A stretch of DNA of 55,613 nucleotides, filler included, from Catajapyx aquilonaris (lineage: Eukaryota): assembly GCA_000934665.2 (NCBI GenBank). It is 2 parts of 2 records of this genome, joined end to end, with 100 filler letters (N's around TTAATTAATTAA, not from the genome) between each part and the next. Parts side by side here need not be neighbours in the genome. Positions count along the whole stretch, not along the records: positions 1 to 27,760 come from JYFJ02005003.1; 1 more part is not named here. One strand, written 5' to 3'. How positions within the stretch are numbered: the stretch's first letter is position 1; the number at the start of each line of letters is the position of its first letter. The position numbers and the translations under genes were made by a program. The notes below the pieces were generated by a model, which was not told the origin of the DNA, did no database searches, and saw only the letters and a list, made by a program, of their open reading frames with translations. Below are positions 126-38,019 of this stretch, piece by piece.

Positions 126-654
126 TTATGTCAAGTTTTAAATGGTCATACAGGTGCTAGGTACCGGCAAGAATTCTTATTTCAGTTTTGGTGGCATTCA
201 TAATTTAAAACTTGTTTCATGAGTGACATTGTTTACTAAATCTGACATTTAAATAAGGTGACTTTGCAATACTTTTTTTGTACAATGTGGTATCATTTCA
301 TTTGGGATATTACAAAGGGATACCTTGTTTACTTTTAATGTTAGTTTTAGTGACTAATATGTTACTTAAAAATAATCATGTTGTAGGGGAGGGTGGGGCT
401 AGTTATTACAATTTCCAGTTGATAATTTTTACATGGTGTGTATCTTAAGGGTTGTTTTTGTGGAAAAAAATGCTGCTTAATAGGTTGGACTTTGACCCTT
501 ACTGTGCATTTTTTTCATTTGAATATAATTATCACATCATGGTAAAAAATCATGTATAAGGAGATCGTGCACTCTGTAACAACATGCCTCACTGTGATTT
601 GATTAGCCTGTTTCATATGTAGTGGCCCAATTTCAAGTGGATTTGTCTTTTCAG

Positions 655-2532
655 GACCAGTGGGACTAACATCAAGTGGAGTGCTATTGATCGTTGGTGT
701 ACTCACCCACTGCTAATCAAGACTGTTGCTGACCGAGTGTTGGAGGAATTAAAACAATTTCCAGATGAAAACAGAGATGATGTGGTGATATTGTTCTCTG
801 CTCACTCACTTCCAATGAAGGTAATGAAACTATCAGCAAAAGAGCATTTGTAGATGGAATAATATGTTTTACTTTTATTTAAACTGACGATTTTAAATTT
901 TGTTTGCTATAATATAATCCCATTGTATGTTCGAACTTCCTAGGCATGGTTTTTTGGAAAATTTTAGTGGCAACACTGCTTTTCTGGCCAACTTCTAAGT
1001 AACAGGCCAGTGCTCATGAGCCATTGGATATGTTACAGTTTTCTCCAGGTTTTCATTCACCCTTTGGCTGCCATGGCCATTTTGGTTGCATTATAATGCA
1101 AAATAATTTTTTAAAATTCATGTGTATAACCCCGCCGGAAATTTCTTTCACCACAGAAACTAGACGAGTTACCTAGGGCTATGTTCATGAGTATTTACGC
1201 CATTCGCATGATATTTTAAATGTTATGACATAGGCCAAAGGTCTCATTCATTGTAAGCAAACATTTACTTCACGAATTTAAATACACATAGCTCCCGGCC
1301 GCATATTTTCCGATAAGTGGACGTGCAGCTGAAAACCATTTAAAAAATTCCGAAATTCTGCGATTTACTTTTCGGCGGGGGGAAAATCAGAACGATCTGT
1401 CAAGGGTAGGCAAACTCCCTGGTGCCATTTTGGTCGTAAAAAATGTCCTCGCTCCTAATTGGCCGGGCAGACTGCTCTGAGCTCTAGGCGGTGCCCGCTT
1501 GCCACCTGAGCCGCCTTTTTTTTTGCACCTGGTGACTTGCATTACCTTCGTTTAAACCGGCCCTTTAAAATGTTTAAAACAGGCACTTAATATTTTCATA
1601 ATTTATTAGAGGGAGGGGGGGGGGGGNGTGTAAGTTTACATAAGGTTTAGGAGGGCATAGTATCTGGTTAGGATGTTTTTTATCTTCATGGCTATACAGG
1701 TAGATATTGTTGCTAGAATATTTCTGAATTGGGGTTCAGGGCATCTAATCGTGGAGAAGTGCTGGGTCTGTAGCAGAGCATAGAAAAAATGATATGCGTA
1801 TTGTGTTAAGATCTGGCTGAGAGCCTTGAAATTACTCAATTTAATGTATGTGTTGAGTTGTTCATAAGAATGGCCGCAGTCGGTAAATATTTTCGTATAG
1901 ACCTAGATAATAATCATTTCTTTGACTTTAGTAAAGATTCTGTTTGTTTAAGCATATCATTAATTTTTACTTTGTTACACATCCTACAGACTGTGAACCG
2001 AGGTGACCCCTACCCTGCTGAAGTCGGTGCTACTGTCCAGCTAGTCATGCAGGAGCTGGGCTTCAGCCATGCATATCGACTGGTGTGGCAGTCAAAAGTT
2101 GGTCCTGTCCCGTGGTTGGCCCCATCAACAGAGCAAGCCATGAAAGGGTTTGTTCGCCAAGGCCGCAAAAACTTCCTGCTTGTTCCTATTGCCTTTGTTA
2201 ATGAACATATTGAGACACTGCATGAAATGGATATTGAATATGCCCAAGAATTGGCTGAAAAGGTAAGGTTTCGCAGTGCCTTCCATTTATTTCAGGGATT
2301 GATAAACTCTTGTTCATGGCAGATTGGAGCAAATCTCGTGCGCCGAGCTGCAGCTCCAAATGCACATCCACTATTCATCCGGGCCATTGCAGATGTTGTG
2401 ACCTCACATTTCAAGCGAGGAGGAATCTGCAATCCGCAGATGCTTGCTTGCTGTCCGATGTGTACAAATCCTGTGTGTGAGCAATCTAAACGTTGGTGGA
2501 AAGACATGTCCAATTTGAAGTGTAACAATTGA
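655..2532 (+). CDS. FECH: Ferrochelatase, last three coding exons (5' part lies outside the window)
   Basis: Exons 655-820, 1990-2262 and 2323-2532 with GT-AG junctions and compatible phases. Translation contains [35 protein letters not shown] and a C-terminal CPMCTNPVC ([2Fe-2S] ligand pattern of animal ferrochelatases). Confidence 0.96.
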
Positions 2533-4689: not shown

Positions 4690-5592
4690 CGAGGGTCGTT
4701 TGGAAAAGATTCGCACTCGATTTATTGTCGCGGCATACGTGTGGCTGCATGAAGTTAGCATTTGCCTCAACAGGGGGAGCCACTAGTACCCTACACTCTG
4801 TAAAAAGTTTGTCATATTCACCGCATCAGGTCAGCGACAGTGGCACTTGAAACGCGGGAGGGTGTAGACTGGCGTGGACAAGATGGAAATTCATGAAGCA
4901 GATCCCACAGGGTTTCTTGCAAGACTCGTCACAGGGGACGAATCTTGGTTCCACTACCACACGCCGGAGAAAAAATGTCAGTCGATGCAGTGGAAACACG
5001 TTGGCAGTCCCAGGCCGAAGAGGTTCAAGGCATCCCCGTCAACCGGCAAGCGGATGGGAACAGTGTTCTGGGATGCACAGGGAATTCTTCTGCTGGACTG
5101 GCTGGAGCAGGGGTCCACATTGAACAGTGCCACCTACTGCATCCTGCTGCGTCATCTGCATCGGAGGATTCAGCAAAGGCGCAAGGAGAAATGGGTGCGA
5201 AAGGTGTTGCTCCTGCACGGTAACGCGTGGCCTCACACAAGCCGCGCAACAACACAATCACTGCTCGAGCTTGGTTACACTGTGTTGTCACACCCACCCT
5301 ATTACCCGGACCTGGCACCTTCTGACTATGGACTTTTCGACGTGATGAAGGAACCCCTCCATGGACGAAGATTTGCCAATGCAGCTGAGCTCCAAAGAGC
5401 TGTCCATGACTGGGTGGTGAGGGTACCAAAAGACTGGTTCCGAGAGACGATCATGAAGTTGCCAGGAAGGTGGCAGCGGTGCATCGACCTCGGTGGAGAA
5501 TACATTGAGGCAGCCCAAGTGTGATTCAGCCTCTTCAAGTACATGTAGTGGCCAAAAAAATTCGAGTGCGGATCATTTCTGAACGACCCTCG
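4690..5592 (+). mobile_element. Internally deleted mariner (DD34D) transposon
   Basis: TIRs CGAGGGTCGTTTGGAAAAGATTCGCACTCGA / TCGAGTGCGGATCATTTCTGAACGACCCTCG with TA target duplication. At ~0.9 kb it is shorter than a full mariner. Confidence 0.92.
4874..5524 (+). pseudogene. Mariner transposase catalytic-domain remnant
   Basis: Motifs TGDESW, LHGNAWPH (canonical HDNARPH, second catalytic D changed to G), PPYYPDLAPSDY and WQRCIDLGGEY. The N-terminal HTH is missing. Confidence 0.9.
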
Positions 5593-8881: not shown

Positions 8882-11327
8882 TTAAAACTACTTTTGTACT
8901 GACTGGAATTGTTTCAAATCTGACGCAAAGCCTACATTGCAGGAAGACTGGAAACCAGTAATAAATTACGCAGCAGAAGACTCGGATCGAAGTGAAGCTG
9001 AAAATAATGCCAACCCACTTCAGACAGAGTCCATCCCAGGGATCATCAGATGAAAATGGTGGCCCTGAGAATTCCAGCCACCTTCAAACAAAAATCATTG
9101 AAGAGGCTCATGCACCTCAAGGATCATCAACATTTCAGGTGACTGTTCTAAATGGAGTGAGTTGGACTTTTTCTGACCAAGGTTTCTTCTGAATGTAGTC
9201 AATGGAGTTAATGAGTTGCAATGGTCCTTAGGCCATGCATGTGTCATTGAAAAGATTTTCTGTCTGGTTGCCTTCAGCACTCACGTCTTGCAGCAGTTAA
9301 GTAACCACACTGCAGTCAGAAGTCTTTTTTTGTTTGTTTTTTTTTGTTAAGAAAATCTATAAAGTAGTTTTTTGGCTACTGTGCAACTGGACCATCGACC
9401 ATGTTGTGCAGAGTTATACAAGTTGAATTACGTCTCAGTTGCATCAACAATGTGATGTGTTTAATTGCTTAATCATCACATACGTACCATTTTTACCTGC
9501 AGCATAATCAAGAGGCAGCTCTCATGAAAGCAGTCAGAGGCGCCTTTAAGTGGGATATGCATGAAGACATTTAAGACCAGATTTGGCCTCTTGGCATGCG
9601 TAAATTCACATGAAAATGATTAGATCTGTAAGAAACATGATCGTGACCATGATACGGCTGGCAGTAATGCCATCCAGACTGATGAGGAATTTAATAAATG
9701 GACGGAGAGCATCCGTTAGGAAGAGAGTGACAGTTTAGAGAAGGTGCATGTGTCACAGGAAAAAGAGGAAGACAGTGGAAGAGAGAGAGGTACTTGGTAA
9801 CCATTCAACTAATCTATTATTTTACTACATTGCACTCCTTGTAGCATCATCATTTTGAGTACCTTCAGCTGAGACATTGATAGAATTAAAATTTTCAACC
9901 ACTTGAGATTCTTCTACTGATTCATCTACTGTATATTTAATGTTCCTTTCTTTTTCGCAGGACAAATTAATTTCTACTTTGCATTTATCATCCGAGGACA
10001 AGGGATTGGAAAGAGCTGGCTGCACAAGTGAATTAGGCGATACAAGTCAATCCACTGGAGTCGCATTAGAAGTAGTGAAGCAGGAGGAGGAAGAGGATTG
10101 GTGTGGGATTGTAGCCACAGAGAGTCATTGGACAGGAACAGATGAAGAATATCTTTTGGCTTCACCTTCCCCCAAACGATCTTCACAATATTCCATTATT
10201 GAACAGCAAGTGCCCCTTACCCATTTTCTCTTCATGATACGTATGCAATTCATCCAAATGAAATCGGACCCTCAATCATCAAGCGACTTAGGGAGGAAGC
10301 CTCCAACAATCCTGTGAGAATGGCAGTTCTCCTGACTGTAGTCATGCATAAGGACAGTATTCGATACCACTGCTATTGCTCTGGAACAAGCGGAAAAGGA
10401 CGGTTTCCCGATATAGGTACGAACAAGATCCAAGAAATTATATATTTGGAGTTCAATGCACCCAATGATGTCATGTTGTGGCGAAAGTGTGTGGTTGCCA
10501 TTGACCAGTCAAGCAGAAATTTAAAGAAGAAGCTGAAGGATCTGCGGAACTTGCTCCTGACCAAGCAGCTATCTTCTGATTGTATTGCAAGAAAGTGATT
10601 AGTGCCGCTCTTCTGACTCTCACGACTGCCTTCCGTCATGAAAGCATAAGGACATGCCACATGTTGCTCTCCTTTCTAACCACTTTTCAGGCATAGTGAA
10701 ATAAATTATGCTGTACAGACACATTTTCATTCAGAGGTTCGGGACAAGCTGTAATCCACCTGCAGTCTTTTTCATTGCGTGGAAATTCAGGACTGTAGTG
10801 TATCTTGTAACAGAAAGGTACAAATAGGGATGGCGATTGATCTGTAATAGGATTGTTTTATAAAGGACACCAACATGTTGCTGCACAGCTCCACTTTTTC
10901 TAAGACTCCCATTGCCACACTGACACTTTTATTTTTTGCTCACAGGCTTGATTGGATCCACAGGGACAAAATTTTGACACAAGACTGACTGACAGATGAT
11001 CAACAGCAATGACAACAAGGGTGTCAAAACGTGGTGATTGTGAACAAATGCAGCTTGATTTTCCATCTTCTTTAGCCCAAGTTCTCCCATCCTGCTACCC
11101 ACACGGCATTTTCAGAAACCTGTGACCAAAGCTACTGGCACAACTCTGTCTGGCTGATGAAATGGCGTGCGACACAGGATTATCTCCTTCAGCGGACCCT
11201 TCTCCTACTTGACACTTGGCCCATGCAGGTACGCTGGTATTAATATTTTGTTTCGTAAGCTGTTGTTGGAGTACACAGCCTATTCTGTTGCATAGTTCAA
11301 TAGTCTCAATCTACATTTTTCACTTCA

Positions 11328-13715: not shown

Positions 13716-16700
13716 TCATGGAGTTATGCTGCAAATTGCGCTGCAAGGTCCAACCGTTCCATAGACAGCAATGGCACTCACACGAAAGTTGTATGCGGTT
13801 TCTACATTGCACTGAAATATTAACAGTTGAGTAAATTAATTGATAAATAAAATTAAATGATTGCATTGAAAGGCAAAATAAATAAATAAACACTACCTTA
13901 AACAAGTACATTAGGGTAAGCAAGTACAGGGTGGGGAAAAAGTCATGGGCGGATTAAAACGACGCAGAATGGCGTAAGTAACGTATGACTATATATTTTT
14001 AAAAGTACACTACACAGAGAAAGATATGCCATTTATGGATCAAGGTCCAAAAAAGTCACTTCTTGGAAATAACACCAGATAGATGTGCACCTGGGCAACA
14101 CATTTTCCTCCAAACGCCGGACCAAACTCTTCATAACAACGTGCTCCAGCATGTCCAGGGAAATGTTTCTCATGGCGTGTCTTATCTGATCCTTAAGATC
14201 AGCCAATGACTGAGGACTTATGGCAAACACCGAACTCTTCAGGTACCCCCACAAAAAGAAGTCAGGGGTGGTCAAATCCAGATACCACGACTGCCAAGGA
14301 ATGTCCCCAAATTTCGAAATGACCCTCCCAGGAAACACTTGACTTTTAATTTGTTCGGTGTTCACCACACATCCTCAGTCATTGGCTGATCTTAAGGATC
14401 AGATAAGACACGCCGTGAGAAACAGTCCCCTGTACATGCTGGAGCTCATTATGAATGGTTTCGTCCGGCGTTTGGAGGAATATGTGTTGCCCACAAAGAT
14501 GGACATCTACCCGGTGTTGTTTTCAAGAAGTGACTTTTTTGGACCTTGATCCATAAATGGCATATCTTTCTCTCTGTAGGGTAAATTTTTTTAAATATAA
14601 CTGTTCGTTACTTACGCCACGCTGCATCGTTTTAATCCGCCCATGACTTTTGCCCCACCCTGTATATGGCCAGAATTCACCTTCACCTGAATCCTCTCAC
14701 TATTCATACGATTTTTATTACCTTATCAACAAACTAAAGAAAAGAGTTAACATTAATGAGAGCTACTTTTTTGATTAGTTCCAGTGAGTTGTGAAAGAAA
14801 AACTAGAGTGATTTTAAAATGTTTTCATACTTACAAAAGTTAGATACATTCTTATTTATATTCTCCATGTAATCGTATTCCTAATTGGGCACTTGTCATA
14901 CTGTCGCACCAGCTTTTGTATGCCTTTCCCTTACATGATTGCTGCTTGGATACTGCTCCAGCTCATCACACATTTCAAGTCTTCATTGTTCTCGAACCAC
15001 TACCTACCCAACCACACTTTTCTCTGACTGTCACAATGTCAAAAAGAGCTGACAGCGAAATATTTAAGGAAGATCAGCAGACAGGTCGGAAATTGTGAAT
15101 CGGTGGTGCTCTCGAAACACTTTGTCAACTTGTTCAACATCATTAGTCATCAGAGACTTTTCCCCCTGATGTTCCTCGTCATGGGTGTCAATTCATCCTT
15201 CTTGAAAATTCCTACACCATTTCGAAACCGCACTATCACCCATGCACTTCGTGGCTGAAAGTGTGGTTGGGTGGGAAGCGGTTCAAGAATAACGAAGAGC
15301 TGAAAAAATGTGTGATAGGTTGGCTAGGTACCCAGGCAGCAACCTTCTATGGGGGAGGCATATAAAAGCTGGTGCTGCGTTATGACAAGTGCCTCAATTG
15401 CGGAGGCAACTGCGTGGAGAGGTAGCATAGCATTGTGATTATTTAAAAATATTTTCACGTTGAGATGTACAGGATAATGCGACTAGCCAAACTGACTCAT
15501 TAGGACTGTGTGCAGATACACCTACAAGAGCGACTCTCTGCTTCCCAAGGTAGCCGAGTAATCAGAGAATTCCAGGATATTTTTGACCATATGGGTACAT
15601 GCTTCTCAAAACCTAAGTTGAAATACTCTGCAAGTACTTGCACACTGACAGCTAGGTGACAACGAAGCTACGATTTGGTTAGAAATGCACATAATGGCTT
15701 AATGTTCAAAATTTTCATTGCTATTGGAAATATGGTTTTGTCATGCTCTCAAATGATTTAGGGCACACTCTTGGGAACATGTTTGGAAAGGGGATCGTCG
15801 GGGTATCCATGGAATGTAACTCGGCTCCACAATGATGCAAAAAGGCAGGAATGCCATTGAAGGATCATTAATTCACGATGCTCCCATGACTGTGCCCATA
15901 GCTTGTAAACCTTCTGAACTAACGCTCACCTGAGTTAGAGTGATGCACATTGGAAGTGCCTTTGCTACGTAGGCTCCAAGAGTTGCCCAGGGAAATGATT
16001 TCTTTGAGGTTTTTTTCAGTTGAGCTTTGACCTCATAAAGGCATATTTCCGCAGGGTCCGTGTCTTGAGGCATATCCACCCGCAGGCAAATGGCTGCAAT
16101 GAATAGCCTTTATGTAAATTTAGGGTTTCTCGGTGTCTATAAGAGTTCACACCTTACCACCATCTTCCTTGAAGGCTTCCACTGTAGGCTTTGGTGGGAC
16201 GGATGCTGCACTAGTAGTCCCCTCCAGGTTGGGCAGTTTTAGTGGTTGGGCTAATGAGGCCGGGTCACCCTGCGGAACATGTCAAATTTTTTGTCCTAGT
16301 TGGTTTGGTTTGGTTTATTCGGAAGAAGTCAAAGCAACTATGGCTATCTGGCTATAAGAAGCAGGAAAGGTGGGACAGATGGAGAGAGAAACAAAGAGGA
16401 AAAAGAAGAGAGGAAAGACTGGTATCTCTCTTAGTCTGTCTCCTATCCCAAAAGACCTGTCCGGCTTGGGTGGCCCTGCCAGTAGACGAAGCTACCGCCG
16501 GCATAGCTCTTGGGGTCATGGGAGAAACGCAAACCCCACCACCACGATTTTTTATTTATATAATAATTATAACAAGTAATATATTATAATAATATTTTTA
16601 AATTTTTGTCCTAGTCATGTAGTGTAGTTAATAACAGTTGTGATTTACCATATTACCTGACAAATAGCACCATGCCAGTCATTGTAATAATCAGGGTACC

Positions 16701-16847
16701 GGTACTTACGGAGGGCTCTTCCTTTTTCTGTCCGAAGCCATGTGTTCTCCCAACACAGAAACCGGGAAAGGCAAGTGCCAAATGCGTGGATAATGTGGTT
16801 GTCGTTGCAGCAGTTGACGAAACAGGCTCTTCAGCCATAGGTTCCAT
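13716..16847 (-). CDS. Stand-alone ATF7IP/MCAF/Windei-type C-terminal FN3-domain protein, ~169 aa
   Basis: Exons 16847-16710, 16269-16158, 16093-15930 and 13811-13716 (510 nt), all GT-AG and phase-compatible, no internal stop. Translation ...VPPKPTVEAFKEDGAICLRVDM...LYEVKAQ...PWATLGAYVAKALPMCITLTQCNVETAYNFRVSAIAVYGTVGPCSAICSITP* aligns by eye to the ATF7IP FN3 (PQKP...[20 protein letters not shown]...YYFAVRAKDIYGRFGPF). Confidence 0.8.
13927..14662. mobile_element. Fold-back maT/DD37D-type element built from two inverted copies of the transposon 3' end
   Basis: TA-CAGGGTGGGG ... CCCCACCCTG-TA with ~300-bp inverted arms, both encoding PQSLADLKDQIRHA... The centre carries DLTTPDFFLWGYLK on the minus strand. 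Confidence 0.88.
14860..15426. mobile_element. Rearranged mariner remnant with an inverted duplication of the transposase C-terminus
   Basis: Plus 15255-15425 encodes LKVWLGGKRFKNNEELK...KLVLRYDKCLNCGGNCVER*. Minus ~15245-14860 encodes an HTH-region remnant (SAVSKWCRNFQEG...RFTISDLS) joined to a second copy of the same C-terminus. Confidence 0.75.
16430..16547 (-). mobile_element. RTE/BovB-like retrotransposon 5'-region fragment in intron 1 of the FN3 gene
   Basis: Minus strand TCGTGGTGGTGGGGTTTGCG...AGCTATGCCGGCGG...CAGGGCCACCCAAGCCGGACAGGTC resembles the conserved 5' leader of RTE-clade LINEs (recalled consensus). Confidence 0.55.
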
Positions 16848-18763: not shown

Positions 18764-18994
18764 TTATTATTGATATTAAGGAGGTTGGCCCAGCATTGCC
18801 TTTCAACCTCCAAGGATAGGGAAGGAAGGAAGCGGCTGTGGCCTATTATATGGAAACAACCCCGGAATTATCCTAGGAGAAGACCGTGGGAAACCACAGA
18901 AAACCACGGTCAGTGTTGCCGGCCCCGGGATTCGAACCCAGGACCTCCCGATTAGCTGGCGGACGCCCTATCCACTATGCCAACCTGCTTCGGT
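18764..18994 (-). mobile_element. tRNA-derived SINE (family D) with an alternative 3' tail
   Basis: Minus strand ACCGAAGCAGGTTGGCATAGTGG...GGTTCGAATCCC...GGCCACAGCCGCTTCCTT; 15-bp TSD CTAAATACACCTACT. Confidence 0.88.
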
Positions 18995-20285: not shown

Positions 20286-20927
20286 GGCCGAGCACAAATC
20301 ATGCAATGAAGGTGCGACGTTGCCCCGATTTGTTGCATCGAGACAGGATGCGCGCGCAGCTTTCGGATGACAATACGTCACATTGCACACCCTACGTAAA
20401 TCATGCAAATTTGATGCGATCTTAGGCGCGGAATTGTAGTACAGTATTCCATAATTTTAGGGAAGTAATACCGCTCACAGTTCATGAATGAGGTCATTCT
20501 TGATCACTATGTACTATCCACACTCCATGGGCCACCGGTACTGGTACGACGTAACACATACTTTGGTACAGTGTAGCCTAGTATTTACTCATTGCCAGCA
20601 AGTCACAACATTAGCAGCCTCCTACTCTCGTGGGGCCCCCGGGAAACTGGGCAGCATGCTCATCAGTTAAGACGGCCCTCCTTCCAACACACTGTATCGA
20701 AGATTCAACGAGATTCACTCTGACCTGGGCGGCGCCAGCTTGGAAATTGCCTCCGATTGGCCGGGAGGGGGGGGGGGGNNNNNAGAGAGGGGGGGGGGGG
20801 GAGAGAGAGAGAGAGTTTTCAAGCAGTGCTGGAAACCTGAAACACCCCTGCGACCTCGGAGGAAAGCGGCGCACGCACCCTGTGCCTGCAACAAGTCGCT
20901 GCAACTTCGCATGATTTGCGCTCGGCC
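20286..20927. mobile_element. PIF/Harbinger-like MITE
   Basis: TIR GGCCGAGCACAAATCATGC / GCATGATTTGCGCTCGGCC with TAA on both flanks. Confidence 0.7.
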
Positions 20928-21127
20928 TAAGGCACTGGCCAACTCCACGATAATTGAGAAAATTTTGATAGGAAAAAATTAATCAAAATTTGACTGAGCC
21001 TAACAGATAGCCTTGAGATTTGACGGAACTGGGAGTTTCGGCAAGCTATGGCCAACAATAAAACTACGAGCATGCAGTGTTGCAGTTGGACTGAAGGGTA
21101 CATGTATCATAATTAACACATGTGGTA

Positions 21128-21858
21128 CAGGGTGTCCCACTACCTCCTGAACCGGGAAAATGGCGCACAACTGGTAAACCACTTGATGTAGGGCTATGAA
21201 ATTTTACGGGTACATACCTTGGTCTGTGAAAGTAACATATTGTCATAGAAGATGCTGAAAGTGGCCCCCATTTGCATCCAAGCAGGTCTGAACGCAACGC
21301 TCCATGTTCGCGAAAGTGCAGGCCAACATCTCGGGAGTTATCCCCTCAATTGCGGAATGGATATTTTCCTGCAGTGCTGGGATAGTTCTTGGTTTGTTTT
21401 TGTAGACCTGTCCTTTTAGGTAACCCCACAGGAAATAATCGGGTGATCGTGGTGGCCAAATCCCCTTGGAAATGACTCGGCCTGATGGGAAGAAGGAATT
21501 GATGACGGCCATGCTGACCCTCGATGTGTGGCATGTTGCTCTGTCCTGCTGAATGTAGCCCAATGTGAGTTCTTCATCGTCCAACTGCTGCACGAAAGCG
21601 TAGAAAATCTGGAGGTACACGCGGATGTCACTGTTGAATTGAAGAATACGGGTCCAACAATGCGACGTCGTGAAATCCCACACCACACGCTAACTTTCTC
21701 AGAATGGAGCGGTTCCTCGTGTATCACGTGGGGATTTTCGCTGCAGCCGGTTTTTCTCATGGATCAAGCTATGTCCCCGTAAAATTTCATCGGCCTACAT
21801 GAAGTGGTTTACCAGTTATGCGCCATTTTGCCGGTCTGGGAAGTAGTGGGACACCCTG
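21128..21858 (-). mobile_element. Internally deleted maT/DD37D-type Tc1/mariner element
   Basis: ~80-bp TIRs (TA-CAGGGTGTCCCACTAC ... GTAGTGGGACACCCTG-TA). Frameshifted transposase fragments ENPH...KVSVWCGIS...GPVFF, QQDRATCH, WPPRSPD, FLWGYLK and NGGHFQHLL. Confidence 0.9.
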
Positions 21859-22196
21859 TACTATGGCCGCCAAATGTATTGGCCGGATGTGATGGGTATA
21901 TACCGCCGCCCATCGGCAGCCGGCAGAAACTGACGTGCTGTGATGATCCCTGCCGCTATTAGAGGCCTATTAGAGGGAGCTGAGAGTGGGGGGGATGGGG
22001 AGAGCATGCGAAGGAGGGAGACCAGATCAGGGGGGGGGGGAGTCGCATGTGTCCGGATGGTTCAATGGGAAAGAGAGACAGATTATATGGGCTTTGTCAG
22101 CTAATAAGCGCAAGGTCATGGGCATTTTTCAGACTCTGAATTTGTGTAATATTATGATTTCACACAATTATTTGTGATGTGCATTGGCCGAGCTGC

Positions 22197-23064: not shown

Positions 23065-23429
23065 TATATCATTGGAGATTTTCCCTAATTTGTCTTAATA
23101 CAACCAGCCCTATGTCAGTTTAACGAACAATGTGTGATTAATAAAATAGGATAAATAATACTCTTGTTACTAAAGTCAAAATTCTTGCACTTTACTGTTG
23201 CTGCTAAGAGAGGGAAATGTTGGATGGATTGGGATAGTTTGTACCATGTGATATTTTGCTTTAAAGTTCATTGAAAGAAAGTATGGTTGATATAACATTA
23301 TTTTTAATGTAAGTTTTGTTATGCATGTGTATTTGCCATCAAGCCTACATGTTCCATACCTTTGTAGTATAAGATGCGTAACTTTGCATCGTTTAAAGAA
23401 ATATTCTTTACTTATTTGCAGCAACAAGC

Positions 23430-26400
23430 ATGGCGAACGAAAATGATACATACGCTCCTGGTGATCTTGTATTTGCCAAAGTCCGGGGATATCCTGCGTG
23501 GCCAGCTAAGGTACTTTGTTTTTCATTGAAATTTGGCTTTAAGAATTATATATGACTCCAATATATGTGTGAATTGTTTTTATACACATATAGGTGATTA
23601 GTACTACGTACAAAAAGGGAAAGGTGTCTGAGAAGTACTACAACGTGGTCTTTTACAAGACTTATGAGAGGTAAAGGCTGGTCCTATTATTATCTGCATG
23701 TGATGTGGGGTTAAACCGAAGATTCTGGATTGAAGAATTGTCCAGAATATAGCATAAACCCTAAAGAAAAGTAGAGAAAAGCCGACAATTCTTTCTCGAG
23801 TCAAATAGAATTGTGCGTATTTCTCCTACAATGATTATATGAAATTTGCTCATGCAGTCTTTGCATTTTAAAATTCCAACCTTCGATTTCTCTGCAGTGG
23901 TGCATGCAAAGCTGATGCTCTTTTCCCGTATCGGACTTCTAAGGACAAGCTGGGTATCCCACAGAAACGGAAACATTTTAATGATGCTCTTGAAGAGATT
24001 GAAAACTTTCCAGACATTATTGGACCTGATGGAAAGGTAAAAAAATATTTTCTGCCCTATTCTGAGCCATGTTTTAATATATGTTTTCTCTGACAGCTGA
24101 ACAAAAAATTGACGAAGCAGAAATACGGCGAATCTGATGATGAGGATTCAAAGGAGGACACAAAGGAAGAAATTGAGGATGATTCAGAAGGAGAGTTGAC
24201 CATCGATGAAGACCCTAAGCCGGAAGCTAAGAGTGGCCCAGGACGTAAGAGGAGAAAGACTTCTCCTGACACTGAGGTAAAGGCATGTTCCCACTCTTAA
24301 CCGGCAACTCTTTCTCTCTGCCTGGGCAAGGCATATCCCTTCTCTCTTCTTTGCCACCACTCCTCACCACACCAACCCGAACTCCCCCTTTAACCCCATC
24401 ACCTCCAGCCAGCTATAGTCTCACTATTTTGAGAAAGGGGCATCACTTGTCATGACGTTTCAGCAGAGGCAGGATCAGATGCAGCGCATATTCAGTGTAA
24501 CCTCGCAACTTACATATCCTTCTCAAAAGTATAAGAGCTCACAATATCATTCCTGTACAAAACTATGGCAATATTACCAAGGGAGGAATGTGAAGTGAAT
24601 GTGGCTCCACGTTTTCCCGCATGAATAAGCCTTTCGTAGGGAGGGAGAGGAGGGGTGTGTAGGTCGATGACGCTGTCTCTTTCTCAAAATAGTTAGACTA
24701 GAGCATCTAGGCAATGAGAACTCAACCACAGAGTAGGGTAAACCATACAGTGATGGTCAGTTTAGTGTATTGGTCTCAGTAATACATGAATATTCTCACC
24801 TTTTCTTTTAAGGAGGTGTTCTAAAATATTTTTCTAATGACTGAGGTTGTCCCCATTCACATTGCATCAATTCACGCAAATCTATCAGAATGTGTATATA
24901 CAGGGTGTTCCAAAAAGGTGTTCCCAGTAAAGAACCGATGCAGTTGCAGAAGTATTCCATATATTTTATTCAATTTTTCCGGGAAGGTGGCACATATGAT
25001 AAAGTTTTTGTACAAAAATTCACACCGCACGCTGCGCCACTCCGTTTCCCCACATACTTCCATAGGCTACATGAGGACCTTGGGGGAAGAACTGTCAAAG
25101 TCCACTTTTTGTCAAAAATGAGTTACATATCTCATAAGATACTTTCACTAGCATAGAATATGGTGGTTTGGTCGTGGTTGTGGAATAATGATCATAGGTC
25201 ACTATGGAAAGCCCCGAAAGTGGGATTTACAATAACCTTATGGGCCTTTGAAATTTAAAATTGGCATGTCAGTTTCACCTGGCCTTGATCGTTCTTCCCC
25301 CGAGGTCTTCTTATGGCCTTTGTATTCGGCTATAACATACTGATTTCCGTGGTCCCTTGAAGTCTGTTATATCCTGATTCAACTGTACCTGCTGTCCAAC
25401 AAGAATTGTCGCAGCGGCAGCGCACGAACTACAGTCTCTTGTGTCCCTGTGCTCGTAGATTGTAGTTCGTGCGCTGCCACTGCGACAATTCTTGTTGGAC
25501 TGATAGTACATTGATTAAAGCTATGAGGACATTCATAATAACATCAGTATGTGACATACATGATGTAAGTTGCTTACTTATAAATAGGATTTAAAACACT
25601 TAAAAACATCTGTCTTTCCCTGCAGTATGTCTGCTTTTGTCCACTGTAAGACAACAAATGGGGGAAGTGGGGAGGGAGGAGGATAAAGTGAAAGCAGGGA
25701 GAATCATCAGATTGCCTCGTATGATCACCAAGATGTTTTGAAGGACATGGGCAGGGGATGAATGGGTGGAAATTTTAAAGGGACACTCCACTCAAAATAC
25801 AAGTTGGGCTCTAAAAATCGGGGGAAAAATCCTGACTCCGAGGGTATAAGCAGTTTTTCTGAGAACGAACGGTACGGCCAGGGCGAAGGCTGGAAGTGTG
25901 TCGTTCGAAAACTGCGCTCAAACGGCTCGGCGCAGGTGGCGACGCCACCCTCTGAGGGTAGGTGAGGGCAGAACTAGAGAGCGGTAGGCGCGGATTTGAA
26001 ACGGACCGTGCTCTACCTTTCCACCGACCCAGAAGATTAGTGGTGATGTCATCCTCGCACGGAAGTGTGACTTTGGCCCACGTGAGTGGTTGAGGAGTGC
26101 AAAGTGAAACCAGATGGGACACCAACATATCTGTTTATAGTCCGCATATCCAAATAACAATGAGCCTGCCTGACAGGCGACAGAACATGACGCATCTGTC
26201 CTCGTCGTCCCCATCGCTCTCATCGACCTCGTCATAATCATCGTTCGAAGTACGGCATGTACGGGTGCCGCCCAACGAACTCATCATCGCCGACATCAGT
26301 ATGTTGGTCATCCGCACTAGCACAAGCAGTGCCTCCAACTGATAGGGTAGGAGGCCATGCGCAGTGGATTGGGGGCCGCCTGGTCAGGAGGGACCATGTC

Positions 26401-27760
26401 CAACCTGGGCACCCTCCATCGCAGCAGCAGAGCCAAGAGCCGCACTCATTTCCATTACATTCCGTCCCGGAACAGAATCACTGGGCGGCGCCATCGTAGA
26501 ATAACCGCGACGCGTTTCAGAATAGCAGCTAATATGTGTTAGGGCCCAAAGATGGCTCTATTTCAATGACTAATTCCCATATGAAGCACTATTGGTGTCT
26601 GCCAGGCTACAACATTAGTCATTTGGTTGTTAGACAACTAGGTGTAGCATGCATTGGCCTAGGCGAGAGACTTGTCATTAGCAGTTAGTTGTAGCTGCTA
26701 GTAGTGCTAGAAAATAGCTACTGATGTGTGGTTCTCCGTCTGGCCGCCACGAGGGGTTCGCGTTCCTGCCAGGCGTCTCCACTCGCTGGCGGGAGACTAT
26801 TATTTTACGAATCTGACCTCTCGCCCTGGGCTTACCGTTCGTCTCCCAGAAAAATTGCTTATACCCTCGGAATCAGGATTCCTTGCCCGATTTTTAGAAC
26901 ACAACTTGTATTTTGAGTGGAGTGTCCCTTTAACATGGAGATGGTTCAAAGTATTATTGCCAATATCTCAACACACTCAGATTCCGGTACTTACCTGCGA
27001 CTGTGTGTGAAGATCCATGTCAGTTCTTTTTTTACTCATGCAGTCAGAATTTTGAACCATTCAGATATTGTGTTATGAGTAATAATTGAGGAAAGGGCCT
27101 AGCCCGCATCTCTGCAACACTATACTGTTCTGTCTTTTTTTTTTCTTCTTTCTTTCTTTCTTTCTTTACACTTCATCTTTCTTTCTTTACACTTCATCTT
27201 TCTTTCTTTTTTCTTCATTTTTTTTTGTGTTTCTGGACAAGGTCATTATAACGCACTCCAAAATGAGTGTTACAACCCAAAACGTCACAAATGTACAGAG
27301 TGCTCTCCCCTGCAGAAGGGCCCACAAAGCCTTGCAGGTTAATAAAACGTATTATTATTGTATTATTATTATTATAAGATCCATGTCAGTTGCAAAAGTG
27401 GAGATTACGACAAACTTTACAACCTGGCTTACATTGCCTGCTTTATTGAACTGACCATGACCATCTTGGAAAGTTTAGTTTAGGCAATAGACCAGTATCT
27501 TTTGGAAAATACCGTTAAATAATTACTCCAATTGCAGCACCTGCCACCTAGGAAGAAACGGCCGGTCGGTCGTCCAAGTAAGGAAGCCAAGCTTCAAATG
27601 TTGAAGGAAGAAGCTTCTCTGGAGGTTAAAACAGCCAAGTTGAAGGAGATCAAGGGACCTTCCAATGTTGACGCAACACAAGATGCTGAGCGAGTCAGCC
27701 GGAGTGGGCGTAAGATAAAACCAAAGCGGTTTGCAGATGAATCGATTGGTTTGGGTCCCA
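23430..27760 (+). CDS. PWWP-domain, AT-hook chromatin protein (HDGF-related/LEDGF/JASPer-like), 3'-truncated by the spacer
   Basis: Exons 23430-23510, 23594-23670, 23898-24036, 24097-24276 and 27538->27760, phase-compatible. Contains YAPGDLVFAKVRGYPAWPAK...YNVVFY...LFPY...FNDALEEIE (HDGF-type PWWP), an acidic linker, NLS-like GRKRRK and AT-hook-like KRPVGRPSK. Confidence 0.9.
24416..24700. mobile_element. MITE in a PWWP-gene intron
   Basis: Inverted ends TAGTCTCACTATTTTGAGAAAG / CTTTCTCAAAATAGTTAGACTA. Confidence 0.65.
25384..25510. mobile_element. Small palindromic MITE (~125 bp)
   Basis: Near-perfect hairpin GTCCAACAAGAATTGTCGCAG...CTGCGACAATTCTTGTTGGAC; related copy at 3881. Confidence 0.78.
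25779..26929. mobile_element. Kolobok-like non-autonomous DNA transposon
   Basis: TTAA-AGGGACACTCCACTCAAAATACAAGTTG ... CAACTTGTATTTTGAGTGGAGTGTCCCT-TTAA; ~110-bp TIRs, AG..CT termini and a TTAA TSD. Confidence 0.8.
27026..27375 (+). mobile_element. Short retroposed insertion (LINE 3' end)
   Basis: Perfect 16-bp TSD AAGATCCATGTCAGTT (27010 and 27376); ends in a CCTGCA..TGCAGG stem, AATAAA and a (TAT)n tail. Confidence 0.75.
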
Positions 27761-27860: not shown

Positions 27861-28229
27861 CCCTCCCCTAGAGAGAACCCCTTTTCCCCATCCCGCTTAG
27901 AACAGGACGACCCGGCCTGAGAGAGAGAGACTCAGCCCCACACCACACTACCACACATCGCAAGAGAGAGGGAAGATACGGACCCGCAGGTAAAGGCAAG
28001 GCCTCCAACTGGTGTACCCTACTAGTGTACGGAACGTTCGAAAAAAAGGAGAGTGGAAAAGAGGTGTAAATGCGCAGAATTGATCCAGGCCTCGGACTAG
28101 GCCTTGCCCCGTTCTTATTTCGGGGGTCAAACGGGGACCACATTCGAACCATTGCAGAACAACAATCTGTACATGGCCCTGCCTGTAGTTGCAGACTGAC
28201 CTGTTCTTTCCGCCCATTTTGCAGACTGC

Positions 28230-30360
28230 ATGAAGATGAAGATCCCGACGAGCTCGACGGGTAATGGCTACTATGGGTACGAGTCCCTCATGCAGGAGAC
28301 GCTGGGTGAGCTGCACGACCAGCCCAATGGGACGCCAGAGGATTTGCAGAGTCCGTCGGGGGAGGACTTCTCCGAGTACATGTGGATGGAGCACGAGGAG
28401 GAGTTTGACAAGCAGGTCAGTAGTTCTCCCAAGGAGGGAAAAATACGCCTCAGCTGGCTCACCAACCAACGTTACTGTGGCTTCATGCAACATCCTCACC
28501 TATAGTTTGCATCATGCTCTAAAATCATATCAGAACAATTTTGTGTTGCGTTATTTGTAATTATAACAGGGGGAGGGGGGAATTGCCACTGATTGATAAT
28601 TGTCGCCAGTAATTAAAACGAGAATCAGCTGCGTAAAGTGGGAAATGGAACGTGAACTTTTCCAGATACCGTGTGCCCTTCTGTTTTATCAGCATGCTGA
28701 GATTTTGCTGCTCTTACGCTGCATGGCATTCTCTGCATTGGCCTTCTTACTCTGGCATTATTTTGAGTACGTTGTTAAACTCAGCGGCTGCGAAACAAAA
28801 GAGTAACAATTATTGTTACTAATTTGTTTCGCTGCCGCAGCCGCTAACAACGTCCTCTTTTATTGTTATGATTTTCTGGTTTTTTTTGTGAGGAATTGCG
28901 TTGGCAATACTTTGTTGACACTCGGTGCTTGGCAGGAAGAATGTTGGCATCTTTTTTTCTGCATTTGTTATGATTACCATGGTTTTTTTTTTGTTGTCAT
29001 TGTGCCTGCTTCACCTATTCGACATAGAGCAATTTGACAGTACGGGCTGTGAGTTGGTTCTACTGTGAAGGAAAACAAGAAGCATCGCATTAGACTTGAA
29101 TTTGTTACCAGACCAGGCAAGCCTATTGGGAATCTGTGACTTTGAATTGTTGGAACCCAACGTCCCAAATGACTAGGTTGTATGATGGATGGTAACTTCA
29201 GAACAAGTCTTGTTATTCATTATTTAATTCCATCAAAGTGCATGTAGTCATGTATCGCCAAGCAATACTGTCAGTACGCCAGGGCCCGCAGGATTGATGC
29301 CAATTCATTCAGAGCAAAGTGTAAGTTTTATCAACTGTGTTTAGGTTTTTAATGGCATGACGATGAGTGTGTGAAGTCAAATTGCAGCGGCAGTAATTAT
29401 TTATGGAATGATTTTCTGGTGTGCAGGTAATGCAGCAGTTGGAAGAGGAGGCCCTGATGCAGCAGTGTATGGAAGCCATGCTGGAGGAAGAACATGAAGG
29501 CAACGGTGGAGAAGCAGCGTGGGACCCTTCCTCCTCCAACTCCTCCAACTCAGAGGCACACCTCAGCCACAGTCTTCGGGGTCTCAAAGTTCATGACGAA
29601 CTTGCCACGCAGGTCAGTACCCCACTGGTGAATGCTGTGGCATCTGGTCTGTCGGTGCGTCTGGTGAAATAATGACAAAGGCAAAAGTCTGTGCAGATGT
29701 TAGATCAACAGCTGAAAATGTCACTGCCAGTGATTATAGAGATGGGTTGAATGATCAATTGAACCTGCGGAATACATGTGCCATTATTATCTGTGCAAAA
29801 CTTTGCAGAAGTGTAACTTCACAATCAGATGATCCTATATCAGACTGTCATGCAAAGATTACATTTCGAAATTTTAATCTTGGTGATAAGAAAGACTCGC
29901 AAGGAAATGGGGGTGGATTCATCAAATGACTTACGACGTTTGATGAATCCAACCCCTGATTGTGATGTCTAGTAGTACAGTAGTAGTACTTATCACTGGC
30001 TCAGATTTAAATTAATTAATCGAGTCAGTTTTATCCGGTTTTATCATTTGAGAGTAAAGAACATATGGCATGATTCACTGAGAAATGTTACAGACCAGAA
30101 AAAAAGTAACCGACTGATCATGCCAAAATTAGCAGTTAAAGTGCATGTGCCGTACCTTTTGACTGTTTTATCAGTGAGTGTCAACATGGTTTCTCTTTTG
30201 TCCACAGAGCTCCTTGAACCCGAACGCAGCAGAGTTTGTCCCCCGCGGGTTCAGAGCACCACCATCACAATCACCTCCCACCTCCGCCCCCTCCTCAAAC
30301 TCCCCCACCCAGCCACAATTGTCCCCACCGAACAATCACGTCCCTTCGCCTTCATCGTAG
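28230..30360 (+). CDS. Paip2: Polyadenylate-binding protein-interacting protein 2 (~174 aa)
   Basis: Exons 28230-28415, 29427-29612 and 30208-30360, all phase 0. Acidic PAM1 region FSEYMWMEHEEEFDKQVMQQLEEEALMQQC and PAM2 motif SSLNPNAAEFVP. A probable 5' UTR exon ends at ~27989. Confidence 0.95.
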
Positions 30361-32856: not shown

Positions 32857-35800
32857 ATGTTGGGTACAGAGCATTTTGGGCATGTGGCCCTCAAGTGGGA
32901 CCCTAAGAACCTGGAGATTAGGACCATGTCTGTGGAGAAGACCCTGGAGCCGCTAGTGCTGCAGGTAACGTACTAGACCGACACTTTATGGGATGTCACT
33001 AATGCGACACCCTCCCCCCGGCACAGGTGACAACCTTGGTCAACACTAAAGGACCGTCTAAGAAGAAGAAGGGTCGGTCCAAGCGGGCCCATGTTCTGGT
33101 GGCGGCTGTGGAAAAGGCGACGGAGAACTTCATGGAAAAGGGGGAGCAGATTGCCATGGAGAATCCGGATATCAAGGCGGAGATGCTGTCTGCCGTTGAG
33201 GAAGTGCGGAAGACGGGTGAGGCCATGAGCACAGCTGCGAGGGAGTTTGCGGATGATCCCTGCTCTTCGCTGAAGCGGGGGAATATGGTTCGTGCCGCCC
33301 GTAACCTGCTGTCTGCTGTTACCCGCCTGTTGGTTTTGGCCGACATGGTGGACGTCCATCTGCTGCTCAAGTCACTCCAGGTCAATATTGCTGCTTCCTA
33401 ATTAATACTCACATCATGCCCATTCACACTTAAAATACGAGGGGTTAGTCACTTTTGAAGTCCTTGTACACCGAGACTGAACTCCGGACAAAGTTTGTGA
33501 AGTCAAGTCAAAGTCTGTGAAGTTCGCACAAAGTTCACGAAGGCCATGAAGTCCGGTCGAAGGCCATGAAGTCCGGTCGAATGCCATGACGTCCGGTCGA
33601 ATGCCATGACGTCCGGTCGAAGGCCATGAAGTCCGTCGTACTCTGTAACATCGAGTGACTAACCCTCTCGTTAAAATCAGTTCAGGTAGTTCGAAAGGTT
33701 GCAATGAATCGTGGTAAGACTAGTGTAACGTTTCTGATGGTGCGGCTTATAGGTGGTGGAGGATGACCTGGAGAAGGTGAAGAATGCTTCCAGCCAGTCT
33801 GAGCTGATGGATAGTATCCGTATGTTTGGACGCAATGCTGCCGAACTGGTTTCTCAGGCGGCCAAGAGGCAGCAAGAACTGAAGGATCCGCAGCTTCGTG
33901 ATGATCTGGCTGCTGCTCGTGCAATACTGAAGCGCAATTCAACAATGCTTTTAATGGCGTCTAAGGCGTATGTGCGTCATCCGGAGCTTGCAGCTGCTAA
34001 GGCCAACAGAGATTTTGTGTTCAAGCAAGTGTGCCATGCCGTCAACACCATTTCTGACGTGGCACAGGGAAAGAGTGCTCCGACTCAGCATCCCTACGAT
34101 GGGCCTGGCGAGTTGGCTGCTGCTCTGGATGATTTTGATGTAAGGTTATTTGAGGGGAAGGTTGATTGTGGTTTTATATCCGGTTTTGATTCCACAGGAG
34201 CGTGTGGTGGTTGACCCGGCTGCATACAGTGAGGTTCGGACGCGTCCGTCCCTGGAGGAACGTCTTGAGAGCATTATCAGCGGCGCTGCCCTCATGGCTG
34301 ATTCCTCCTGCACCCGAGATGAGCACCGAGAAAGAATTGTTGCCGAGTGCAATGCTGTTCGCCAAGCTCTGCAGGACTTGCTGTCCGAGTACATGGCCAA
34401 TGTGAGTACACTCGCATTATTTCTCCTTCTTTTCCATGCTGCAGGATGTGTTAAAATTTATCTTCTCGCTATTGTCAGGTTGGCAAGAAGGAACGAAGCG
34501 AAGGGTTGGACCATGCTGTTGAGCACATGTGCCGCAAGACACGTGACCTGCGCCGCCAGTTGCGTAAGGCTGTGGTTGACCATGTGTCCGACTCCTTCCT
34601 GGAGACCAGTGTTCCTCTACTGGTCCTGGTGGAAGCTGCGAAGGCTGGGAACGAACGTGAGGTTGAGGAGTACGCGCAGGTGTTTGCAGAGCACGCTAAT
34701 AAGTTGGTGGAAGTTGCCAATCTGGCCTGCTCCATGTCTGGGAACGAAGATGGGGTGAAAATGGTGCGTTATGCTGCAGCACAGATTGAGAACCTGTGTC
34801 CCCAGGTTATTAACGCGGCAAGAGTTCTGGCTGCGAGGCCGAGATCAAAGGTTGCGCAGGATAACATGGATGTCTTCAAGGATGCATGGGAAGCGCAAGT
34901 GCGACTGCTCACGGAGGCTGTTGACGATATCACTACTGTAGATGACTTTTTGGCTGTATCAGGTATGCGTTTGGCTTAAATGGAAGCGATGAGCTGAACT
35001 AAATGCGACTGTTTTCTTCATCAGAGAATCATATCTTGGAAGATGTCAATAAGTGTGTGCTGGCCTTTCAAGAAGTGGAACCCGACGTCTTGGATCGGAC
35101 AGCGGGAGCCATACGTGGGCGATCCTCTCGAGTGTGCAATGTGGTCACTGCTGAGACAGATAACTACGAGCCAGGAGTGTACACAGAGCGAGTATTGGAG
35201 GCAGTGAAGGTGCTGCGAGAGCAAGTTATGCCCAATTTTGCCAGACGGGTGGAGATTGCTGTCAACGCTCTAAGCTCAAATCGTATGAAAGAGATAGACG
35301 AGAATGACTTCATCGATGCTTCTAGGCTGGTTTACGATGCTGTCAGGGAAATAAGGCGTGCTGTGCTCATGAACAGGGTAACGATCACGGAGTTTGTAAG
35401 CGTAAGTGCAGTGCTAATACAATTTCTCGTTGCAGACTGATGAAGAACTGGATCCCGAGGACGTTGAATTTGATGAGCACTACGCCACAGAGACAAGGAG
35501 CAAATGTGAGTGGTTTTGCTCTAAGTTGCACTTAATTTAGTGTTTATTTTTCAACAGAGTGATAACCCCAATATAATAAGTAATCAGACCGTGAAAAGAT
35601 GAATGCAAGTGATGTTCGCTCAGGAGGTAAACCCCTCAATTGGTTTTGTAGGGCATGAAAGCCTGATGGCTAGTTGGATGCTCTTCTTTGATTGGCTGTT
35701 GGGCAGTGGTCCAGTGCTCTCCATAGACTCGTCAGGCATTCAGTTAGCTCATTATTTATAATGTAATAGTGAAGCACTGACGGGAAAATTTGCCATTCGA

Positions 35801-38019
35801 AATGACACGTCGAAAGTAACGAATGACTTTTAAGAAATAAGACGAGCCTAACATTTTGGATTTCATTTTCAGCGAGTGCACACACCGGTGACCACACTGT
35901 GGACGAGTATCCTGACATCAGCGGAATATGCACAGCAAGGGTGGGTAGAAAAGTCGTTTACCCCTTTCCAACACGTGTGACATGCCGCTTGTATCTTTTT
36001 TGCAGGAGGCAATGCGCAAGATGAATGAGGAGGACAAGCAGAAGATTGCACAGCAGGTGGAGTACTTCCGCACTGAGAAGTTGAAGTTCGATAAGGAGGT
36101 GGCCAAATGGGACGACACTGGCAACGACATAATCGTACTGGCTAAGCACATGTGCATGATCATGATGGAGATGACGGACTTCACCAGAGGAAGGGGACCC
36201 CTGAAGACCACCATGGACGTCATCAACGCTGCCAAGAAGATCTCGGAAGCTGGAACCAAGCTGGACAAGCTGGCCAGGCTGATTGCGGATCAGTGCCCCG
36301 AGTCCTCAACCAAGAAGGATCTGCTGGCCTACCTGCAACGCATCGCTCTCTATTGTCACCAGCTCAACATTACCTCTAAGGTCAAGGCTGACGTGCAGAA
36401 CATCAGCGGAGAGCTCATCGTCTCAGGGGTACGTTGAACATCTGGGAAGTTGATTATGTGATTCGCAATTGTGTTGAGTTAATTGGGCATTTTATTTCCA
36501 GCTTGACAGTGCAACGTCACTTATCCAGGCAGCTAAGAACCTGATGAATGCTGTGGTTCTAACAGTGAAGGCTTCGTACGTTGCATCTACCAAGTACCCA
36601 AGGCAGGGAACAGTTGCGGTAAGTTTCACTCGAGAACTGTGTGGCAGGTGGGCATGAAAGAGTTTATTTTCTTTCTGCAAGTACCCCCCCCATTTGATCA
36701 TCGCCATTTTTTTCTCCCCACCGTGAGTCTTAAGGGAACAGGTTGAATGGGTGTGAGGGTTGAGTGTGAAGACAGCTTGGGTTTTCAATGTTTTTAGGCC
36801 TGCAAATCCTGGCTGAAAAAAAGGTAGCATCCCCCCAAGACCACTTCTTTGGTCCGTAGGAGGTGAGCCGGGAGGAAGGGCTGGCGACTTTGCCCCAGGG
36901 GCCGCCCCTCTTTCTCCTGCGCCTCTCCGACTCACACGCCGTGCTCTACTCTGTCCATCTGGTATTCTCTGCATACACATAAGCGATTCAGTTTTAACGT
37001 AGTGACTTTAACAGTACTAATATTGCGAGACTAATGTGTGGCATTGCGTGTACATGTTCTAATGGCATGGTAAGCAGTGCAGGATATTTTTCTTTTCCAA
37101 TGTCCGTTGTATCAAGTTTAAAAGCAGGGTCGCTTATCACAGCGATAAGGTGCACAATTTGGAATGAAAACAGTGCGAGACTTGACGTCATGGGAATTGA
37201 GATGCCTGTTTTCTAACACTGCTGGTGTCATGAATTAGCAGGGATTTCGCTCTCTTTACATAACTAGAGAGGATAATGCGTAGAATTGCACAACAGGCTT
37301 ACAGAATACAATTCAACTTGCACAACTTTCCACAGGCGTGTCATTATCTATTGGTTCAAGTGAATTGTGGCCCTATGATTATTCATTGATTGGCACAAAT
37401 GAACAATGTATTTTTGAAATTATTTTATTGATTGCAATTCAAAATTTCACGTAAGAATATTACAAACACAGCTTTGTCACTAGTGATAATGAGAAAGTAC
37501 TGCCAAAGGACCTTGTGTATGTCCAATATGCAAATATATCTGTGGGTTGTGTCCACTTATAACAATTCCAGTGTAACATTGCACATAGAAATGATTCACT
37601 AAAACACTGTAATGTTGTTTAGCAAGTGATAGATGTTGCTGTTTACTAGCCCTACAGATAAAAGGCCTTAACCTTGTTGCGTGTGACTCAGAATATTATC
37701 ACAAGTCATAATCTTGTGATGTTTTTGTGAAAGCTAATATCGGAGATGGCAGTGACTTGTGTCCGTAGAGTAACTGGCTTTCTTAATTGAATGTGCAAAT
37801 TATGCACTTTGGAGGCTTGTACTAATGTAATTTCCTTTTTTTTAATTTTTTCAGTCCCCGATAGTGGTGTGGAAGATGAAGGCCCCTGAGAAGAAGCCCC
37901 TTGTGCGCAGGGAGAAGCCTGAAGAGGTCAGGGCGAAGGTCAGGAAGGGGTCCCAGAAGAAGCCACAGAATCCAATCAAGGCCCTCAGTGAATTCCAGAG
38001 CCCAGCCGAAGCTGTCTAA
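32857..38019 (+). CDS. alpha-Cat: Alpha-catenin (~910 aa, 11 coding exons)
   Basis: Exons 32857-32964, 33027-33380, 33753-34139, 34198-34401, 34479-34962, 35025-35377, 35436-35505, 35873-35940, 36006-36428, 36502-36618 and 37855-38019 (2733 nt, phase-consistent). Contains KWDPKNLEIRTMSVEKTLEPLV, AKWDDTGNDII, RGRGPLKTTMDVINAAK and VVWKMKAPEKKPLV. Confidence 0.98.
33438..33670. mobile_element. MITE containing five tandem 20-bp repeats, in alpha-catenin intron 2
   Basis: Ends CGAGGGGTTAGTCACT / AGTGACTAACCCTCTCG; (A[G/T]GCCATGA[A/C]GTCCGGTCGA)x5 at 33541-33638. Confidence 0.7.

Follow-up and report, generated by a model that had tools for sequence, protein, structure and literature searches.

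A small four-exon reading frame of Catajapyx aquilonaris that may encode an FN3-only protein of ATF7IP/Windei type

Can the fibronectin type III (FN3) domain that ends ATF7IP/Windei-type proteins exist as the product of a gene of its own? This question is raised by a minus-strand locus at positions 13716-16847 of a 55,613-nucleotide stretch of DNA from Catajapyx aquilonaris (GenBank assembly GCA_000934665.2), which an initial annotation had described as an intact gene for a stand-alone FN3 protein of this type. We refer to the whole stretch as the window; it joins parts of two records end to end (positions 1 to 27,760 come from JYFJ02005003.1), and all positions below count along it. Our favoured reading, to which we give a little less than even odds (roughly 0.45), is that the locus is a small four-exon gene for a 169-residue FN3-only protein of ATF7IP/Windei type, without the coiled-coil/SETDB1-binding region, and that it is possibly functional. 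In favour of function, the reading frame, all splice signals and a complete domain have stayed intact in a sequence far from the family consensus.

Exon structure and splice signals

The candidate gene is made up of the following parts, listed in the direction of transcription:

16895-16848, minus strand: possible 5′ untranslated start of exon 1, behind a strong acceptor and containing an in-frame TAA
16847-16710, minus strand: coding part of exon 1, 138 nucleotides, the ATG and 46 codons; no Pfam match
16709-16270, minus strand: intron 1, 440 nucleotides
16269-16158, minus strand: exon 2, 112 nucleotides, 37 codons; linker and putative first FN3 strand
16157-16094, minus strand: intron 2, 64 nucleotides
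16093-15930, minus strand: exon 3, 164 nucleotides, 54 whole codons; FN3 core by its match to PF16794
15929-13812, minus strand: intron 3, 2118 nucleotides, with transposon-like remnants; no Pfam family confirmed in its frames
13811-13716, minus strand: exon 4, 96 nucleotides, 31 codons and the TGA (13718-13716); putative last two FN3 strands

All exon borders are GT-AG, and the four spliced exons add up to 510 nucleotides, that is 169 codons and a TGA with 0 internal stops. The coordinates and counts proposed for this clean frame were reproduced exactly. What is intact here is the open reading frame, and we use the wording "intact open reading frame" in place of "intact gene". The three donors (TCC/GTAAGT, GTG/GTAAGG and CAG/GTGAGC) agree with GTRAGT at 6/6, 5/6 and 5/6 positions, and CAG stands at every acceptor. 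Exon 1, whose sequence is rich in Pro, Gly, Ser, Thr and Ala, terminates at the perfect GTAAGT donor in phase 0. Since donors as strong as those of the candidate occur once per 222 nucleotides on the minus strand (perfect ones once per 2418), single splice sites prove little; three frame-compatible splice pairs that surround a domain match and extend it to the stop are not expected by chance. The exons are single-copy and lie outside all repeat families in a repeat search within the window, and no second copy of the FN3 sequence was found within the window.

The start codon at 16847 is flanked by A at -3 and G at +4, and an in-frame TAA (16871-16869) lies 8 codons 5′ of it in the same exon. 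The acceptor upstream of exon 1 is the AG at 16897-16896, with pyrimidines at 12 of 12 positions of its tract. Because the exon that starts from this acceptor opens in the frame of the ATG and meets the TAA, an N-terminal extension through exon 1 is blocked, which bears out the earlier view that this exon cannot lengthen the frame. From the 16897 acceptor the frame consists of 8 codons, the TAA and 21 nucleotides before the ATG, and could represent either ordinary 5′ untranslated sequence or the tail of a small cistron located upstream.

The predicted FN3 domain and its relation to the ATF7IP/Windei family

To assign the domain, each of the four exon peptides was compared on its own with 24,736 Pfam models at E <= 10, as a planned test. 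Exon 3, scored alone, matched PF16794 (fn3_4) with an E value of 8.9e-4 and 19.6 bits, and this was its only family at that threshold; residues 6-54 of the exon (49 residues) align to profile positions 24-75 of 103. The stop-to-stop frame around it (15876-16109), one of 150 frames scanned, aligned over 60 residues with an E value of 5.2e-5 and 23.6 bits. The FN3 profile match expected of the product was seen for exon 3 and its stop-to-stop frame, both times under the curated cutoff of 27.1 bits, because contiguous DNA offers only half of the domain. Exons 1, 2 and 4 matched no Pfam family at E <= 10 as separate peptides, and the generic FN3 model PF00041 matched none of the four exon peptides at this threshold.

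The remainder of the domain would come from the neighbouring exons. The unmatched profile positions 1-23 and 76-103 adjoin exon 2 and exon 4, respectively, and the 31 residues of exon 4 compare with 28 profile positions. Exon 4 also carries a Y-x-F-x-V-x-A type motif, the only one between exon 3 and position 13600. On the strength of these fitting lengths and this motif, exons 2 and 4 appear to complete the two ends of the domain, with the first strand tentatively assigned to exon 2 because 23 profile positions at the N-terminal side have no match. Of the roughly 110 residues originally described as FN3-like, the profile therefore accounts for 49 in exon 3 (60 in the stop-to-stop frame), and the others are attributed to the domain by lengths and motif. 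The TGA follows 31 codons after exon 3, whose match stops at profile position 75 of 103, which places the FN3 domain at the extreme C-terminus; it is predicted to end 4-5 residues before the stop. An AlphaFold2 model of exon 3 alone, from a single sequence, gave two helices at a mean predicted local distance difference test (pLDDT) score of 59.3, and is uninformative for a half-domain modelled without an alignment.

The predicted product has 169 residues, a mass of 17.8 kDa and an isoelectric point (pI) of 5.69, and a protein of this mass could diffuse into the nucleus. Residues 1-69 consist to 55% of Pro, Gly, Ser, Thr and Ala, contain no basic cluster and are probably disordered. A SUMO-interacting motif is a feature of human MCAF1; neither [VIL][VIL]x[VIL] nor [VIL]x[VIL][VIL] occurs anywhere in the 169-residue frame. 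There is also no coiled coil in the candidate (best crude heptad/composition score 0.11), and none of its exon peptides matches PF16788 (ATF7IP_BD), the SETDB1-binding region.

These features can be set against the known members of the family, which are large proteins (hundreds to 1400 residues) with long disordered regions. Windei (Drosophila CG12340) is a cofactor of Eggless/SETDB1 with 1420 residues, strongly acidic (pI 4.55), whose central coiled coil (residues 842-907) is sufficient for Eggless binding and whose FN3 domain occupies residues 1320-1411 (PMC2730569). As in Windei, which is the arthropod member of the matched family, the candidate's FN3 domain ends a few residues before the stop; unlike Windei, the candidate has only 169 residues, a pI of 5.69 and no coiled coil. 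Overall identity between Windei (Wde) and mAM is 14.8%, and the FN3 domain is 36% identical between fly and mouse (PMC2730569). In mouse, the FN3 domain of ATF7IP is a hub for proteins with ITEFSL-like FAM motifs (ZMYM2, MGA, MBD1, ZMYM4 and ZFP518A); SETDB1 binding and most of the silencing do not depend on it, but it raises the efficiency of silencing, and some germline genes require it (PMC7706265). The SETDB1-binding region of ATF7IP (human residues 562-817, coiled coil 574-666) is needed for silencing and for nuclear retention of SETDB1 (PMC7706265, PMC12167477). The sub-cutoff match of exon 3 would place the candidate in the same Pfam FN3 family as ATF7IP/MCAF1/mAM, but the candidate has no comparable SETDB1-binding region, and the sequence searches returned no ATF7IP directly.

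That specialisation can follow duplication of this cofactor is shown by ATF7IP2/MCAF2, a vertebrate germline paralogue that, like the candidate, is shorter than ATF7IP (PMC12167477). However, ATF7IP2 keeps its coiled coil, which is 24% identical to that of ATF7IP, and binds SETDB1 with the same 2:1 stoichiometry (PMC12167477), whereas the candidate would be the first form with the FN3 domain only. The coiled coil is kept in every family member that we compared from the literature (ATF7IP, ATF7IP2 and Windei), and a cockroach Windei homologue is drawn with both a coiled-coil and an FN3 domain. Our literature search found no FN3-only paralogue or isoform of the ATF7IP/Windei family, and no paper for PF16794 or fn3_4. 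As the defining coiled coil is missing, the candidate is not to be filed as an ATF7IP/Windei orthologue and is at most a domain-only derivative of the family.

Decaying copy, truncated view of a longer gene, or chance match

Several observations speak against a functional FN3-only gene, and most of them would suit an untranscribed or decaying relic. According to this explanation, the locus is a partial duplicate of the last three windei/ATF7IP exons lying in a repeat-rich gap, with a frame still open through the youth of the copy or luck, and "exon 1" is a fortuitous stretch from an ATG to a donor. Repeat remnants crowd intron 3 and both flanks, and no AATAAA or ATTAAA is found on the minus strand for 1.18 kb past the stop. 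The region beyond the stop contains the following features:

13501-12626, minus strand: retroelement-like reading-frame tail, recognised by eye, with a weak zf-RVT match (E 0.034); may be part of the 3′ untranslated region
12540-12535, minus strand: first AATAAA downstream of the stop, just past the retroelement-like tail

Codon usage fits a relic as well. With log-odds derived from 1093 codons of genes in the vicinity, a set dominated by alpha-catenin, frame 0 of the candidate scored best among its three frames, but 13% of 641 null frames reach this score, and the open reading frame cannot be separated from random frames by this measure. To these points can be added the sub-cutoff score of the domain core. 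The family assignment also depends on PF16794 being the model of the ATF7IP C-terminal FN3 domain, which we take it to be; the database label reads only "Fibronectin-III type domain".

Sequence searches with exon 3 likewise returned no relatives. A word-seeded protein search gave 8 candidates sharing words with the exon, none at E <= 10, and phmmer against 1.84 billion representatives gave 0 matches at E <= 0.001. In the PDB, 3 sequences were found at E <= 10, the best of them MCM10 at 0.37 and none of them an FN3 domain, and the ESM Atlas gave no usable match. A single metagenome locus, the only one of 127 pattern matches to pass tblastn, was rejected as a chance 8-residue word: the 42-residue frame holding the word lies across a 262-residue open reading frame, on a densely coding contig that looks prokaryote- or phage-like. 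As a control, an exon of BNIP3 from the same window matched 260 proteins at E <= 1e-5; its full-coverage matches near the top of the list were 54-59% identical and came from insects and unnamed Logan records. The blank searches are weak evidence, because arthropods are represented in the database but close relatives of this species are absent from it. With only 36% identity between the fly and mouse domains, a piece of 54 residues cannot become significant in libraries this large.

The features of the frame itself argue the other way. None of the six splice signals or 169 codons is disrupted, and the domain runs in full to the stop, whereas an unconstrained copy this diverged from the profile should have gathered stops. 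The donor of exon 1 is moreover a perfect GTAAGT in the right phase, and the context of its ATG is good. We regard a relic as an unlikely explanation, if one that deserves to be taken seriously.

The locus could also be the 3′ end of an ordinary full-length windei/ATF7IP gene whose upstream exons were missed or were split off by an assembly error. The missed exons would be short and degenerate and would be spliced straight to exon 2, with "exon 1" skipped, and the phase-0 acceptor of exon 2 could be used by any phase-0 exon. In proteins of the ATF7IP family the FN3 domain sits at the very C-terminus (PMC2730569, PMC7706265), which is where such a gene would place it. Two runs of N upstream, at 20779-20783 and 22994, leave room for an assembly join to missing exons, a point that also counts against an FN3-only gene. 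Conservation is low in the N-terminal parts and in the coiled coils, with the 14.8% and 24% identities given above, so that profile searches with exon-sized pieces can fail to detect them. Given that the coiled coils of the ATF7IP paralogues are only 24% identical (PMC12167477), a missing PF16788 match is weak evidence for an FN3-only gene.

Our upstream searches gave no sign of such exons. PF16788 had 0 matches in 168 stop-to-stop frames of at least 75 residues on both strands (150 + 18), in 135 minus-strand frames of 33-74 residues between 16.9 and 33 kb (3 of 138 such frames, containing N runs, were left out) and in 122 minus-strand frames of at least 38 residues beyond 33 kb; frames below 33-38 residues, that is very short exons, were not covered by these scans. 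No coiled-coil-like frame was found upstream, where the best crude score was 0.37, inside a transposon-like element; alpha-catenin helices, which served as the positive control, scored 0.39-0.48. Between 16.9 and 23.4 kb there is no plausible coding exon, and the 2 open frames of at least 35 codons with a good phase-0 donor are both repeat-like. This region of about 6.5 kb separates the candidate from an opposite-strand PWWP gene, and contains SINE-like copies (SINE, short interspersed nuclear element) and an inverted-repeat element. The genes recognised around the candidate are the following:

623-2529, plus strand: ferrochelatase exons
23397-23552, plus strand: start of the PWWP-domain gene (PF00855, E 2.7e-6), head-to-head with the FN3 gene
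23872-24093, plus strand: HDGF/LEDGF-like continuation of the PWWP gene, by eye
24094-24300, plus strand: acidic exon of the PWWP gene, by eye
27523-27760, plus strand: AT-hook-like exon of the PWWP gene, by eye; runs into the N gap
28200-30360, plus strand: PAIP2-like gene of three exons, with a PAM2 match at 30178-30357 (E 1.5e-7)
28200-28505 and 29412-29672, plus strand: acidic exons of the PAIP2-like gene, by eye
33003-36434, plus strand: alpha-catenin, six frames with Vinculin-family matches
41784-44077, plus strand: BNIP3, two exons, from the Pfam scan

With four plus-strand genes filling 23-44 kb, a full-length gene would have to span them, and the 6.5 kb before the PWWP gene hold no PF16788 match, coiled-coil-like frame or plausible phase-0 exon. 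Exon 1, for its part, has its own ATG behind a stop and an in-frame perfect donor. We consider a full-length gene quite unlikely. The claim that the SETDB1-binding or coiled-coil region is lacking held for the open reading frame and for the upstream minus-strand frames scanned. Because the upstream scans were blank, the 6.5-kb gap is filled with repeats and plus-strand genes lie beyond it, an FN3-only frame is the simplest reading of the locus.

That the fn3_4 match is due to chance or to a generic beta-sandwich, so that the locus would be some other small gene or none at all, would agree with a sub-cutoff score resting on one exon and with the blank phmmer, PDB and ESM Atlas searches, but is highly improbable given an E value of 8.9e-4 from a planned test of four peptides, a sole family at E <= 10 with no PF00041 match, leftover profile ends that fit the adjoining exons and an F-strand-type motif where one is expected.

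The two chromatin-related genes, FN3 and PWWP, may share the region of about 6.5 kb between them as a divergent promoter region. The repeats and other features of the window are as follows:

4868-5521, plus strand: mariner transposase fragment (Transposase_1, 1.4e-18)
9907-10598, plus strand: two overlapping protein-like frames of 136 and 131 residues
13925-14664: nested palindrome inside intron 3, with arms at 13925-14092/14497-14664 (86%) and 14138-14235/14353-14450 (89%)
18883-18994, 45115-45244 and 47374-47480: a short element whose GGTTCGAA core is tRNA-like, in three copies that are 92-95% alike
21125-21861: 112-nucleotide inverted repeats (85%) flanking a 148-residue minus-strand frame that resembles the C-terminus of a Tc1/mariner transposase by eye
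49584-49835, minus strand: weak SOCS-box match (E 0.012) in an 84-residue frame

Transposase-like frame remnants can be recognised by eye in the intron 3 palindrome, with no Pfam family confirmed. The element with the GGTTCGAA core is probably a SINE family, and one of its copies sits in the gap that separates the FN3 and PWWP genes. Neither the 148-residue frame at 21125-21861 nor the overlapping frames at 9907-10598 matched Pfam at E <= 5. The frame with the SOCS-box match may be part of a gene on the minus strand at the window's right end.

A possible role in SETDB1 targeting

If the favoured reading of an FN3-only gene is correct, it may have originated when an ancestral windei/ATF7IP gene was duplicated in part, at its 3′ end, and a new first exon was gained. 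Its product, if expressed, would be expected by analogy with mouse to bind FAM-type motifs of repressors such as ZMYM2, MGA and MBD1, and as an FN3-only protein it would be unable to bring SETDB1 along. At targets of histone H3 lysine 9 (H3K9) methylation its role might then be that of a competitor or of an alternative adaptor, an outcome that is pure inference. The decoy or adaptor role is extrapolated from the function of the mouse ATF7IP FN3 domain (PMC7706265). In its boldest form, the proposal is that the locus is an expressed, lineage-specific Windei paralogue cut down to the FN3 hub, which would occupy FAM-type motifs and either uncouple repressors from SETDB1 or pass them to another complex; at present, we regard this as doubtful.

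Should RNA and orthologues confirm an FN3-only gene, the finding would be notable; otherwise it would be ordinary. Even as a relic, the locus would document how domain-only reading frames can arise by partial duplication in repeat-rich DNA. In mouse, the FN3 domain of ATF7IP picks up repressors such as ZMYM2 and MGA for the SETDB1 complex and contributes a separate layer of retroelement and germline-gene silencing (PMC7706265). If the Catajapyx protein is an FN3-only competitor, this arthropod would possess an inbuilt means of tuning how transposons and germline genes are silenced by H3K9 trimethylation (H3K9me3). A free-standing FN3 copy would also be a natural separation-of-function allele, which could show how the domain acts alone, and whether animals regulate the targeting of SETDB1 through competition for partners with FAM motifs.

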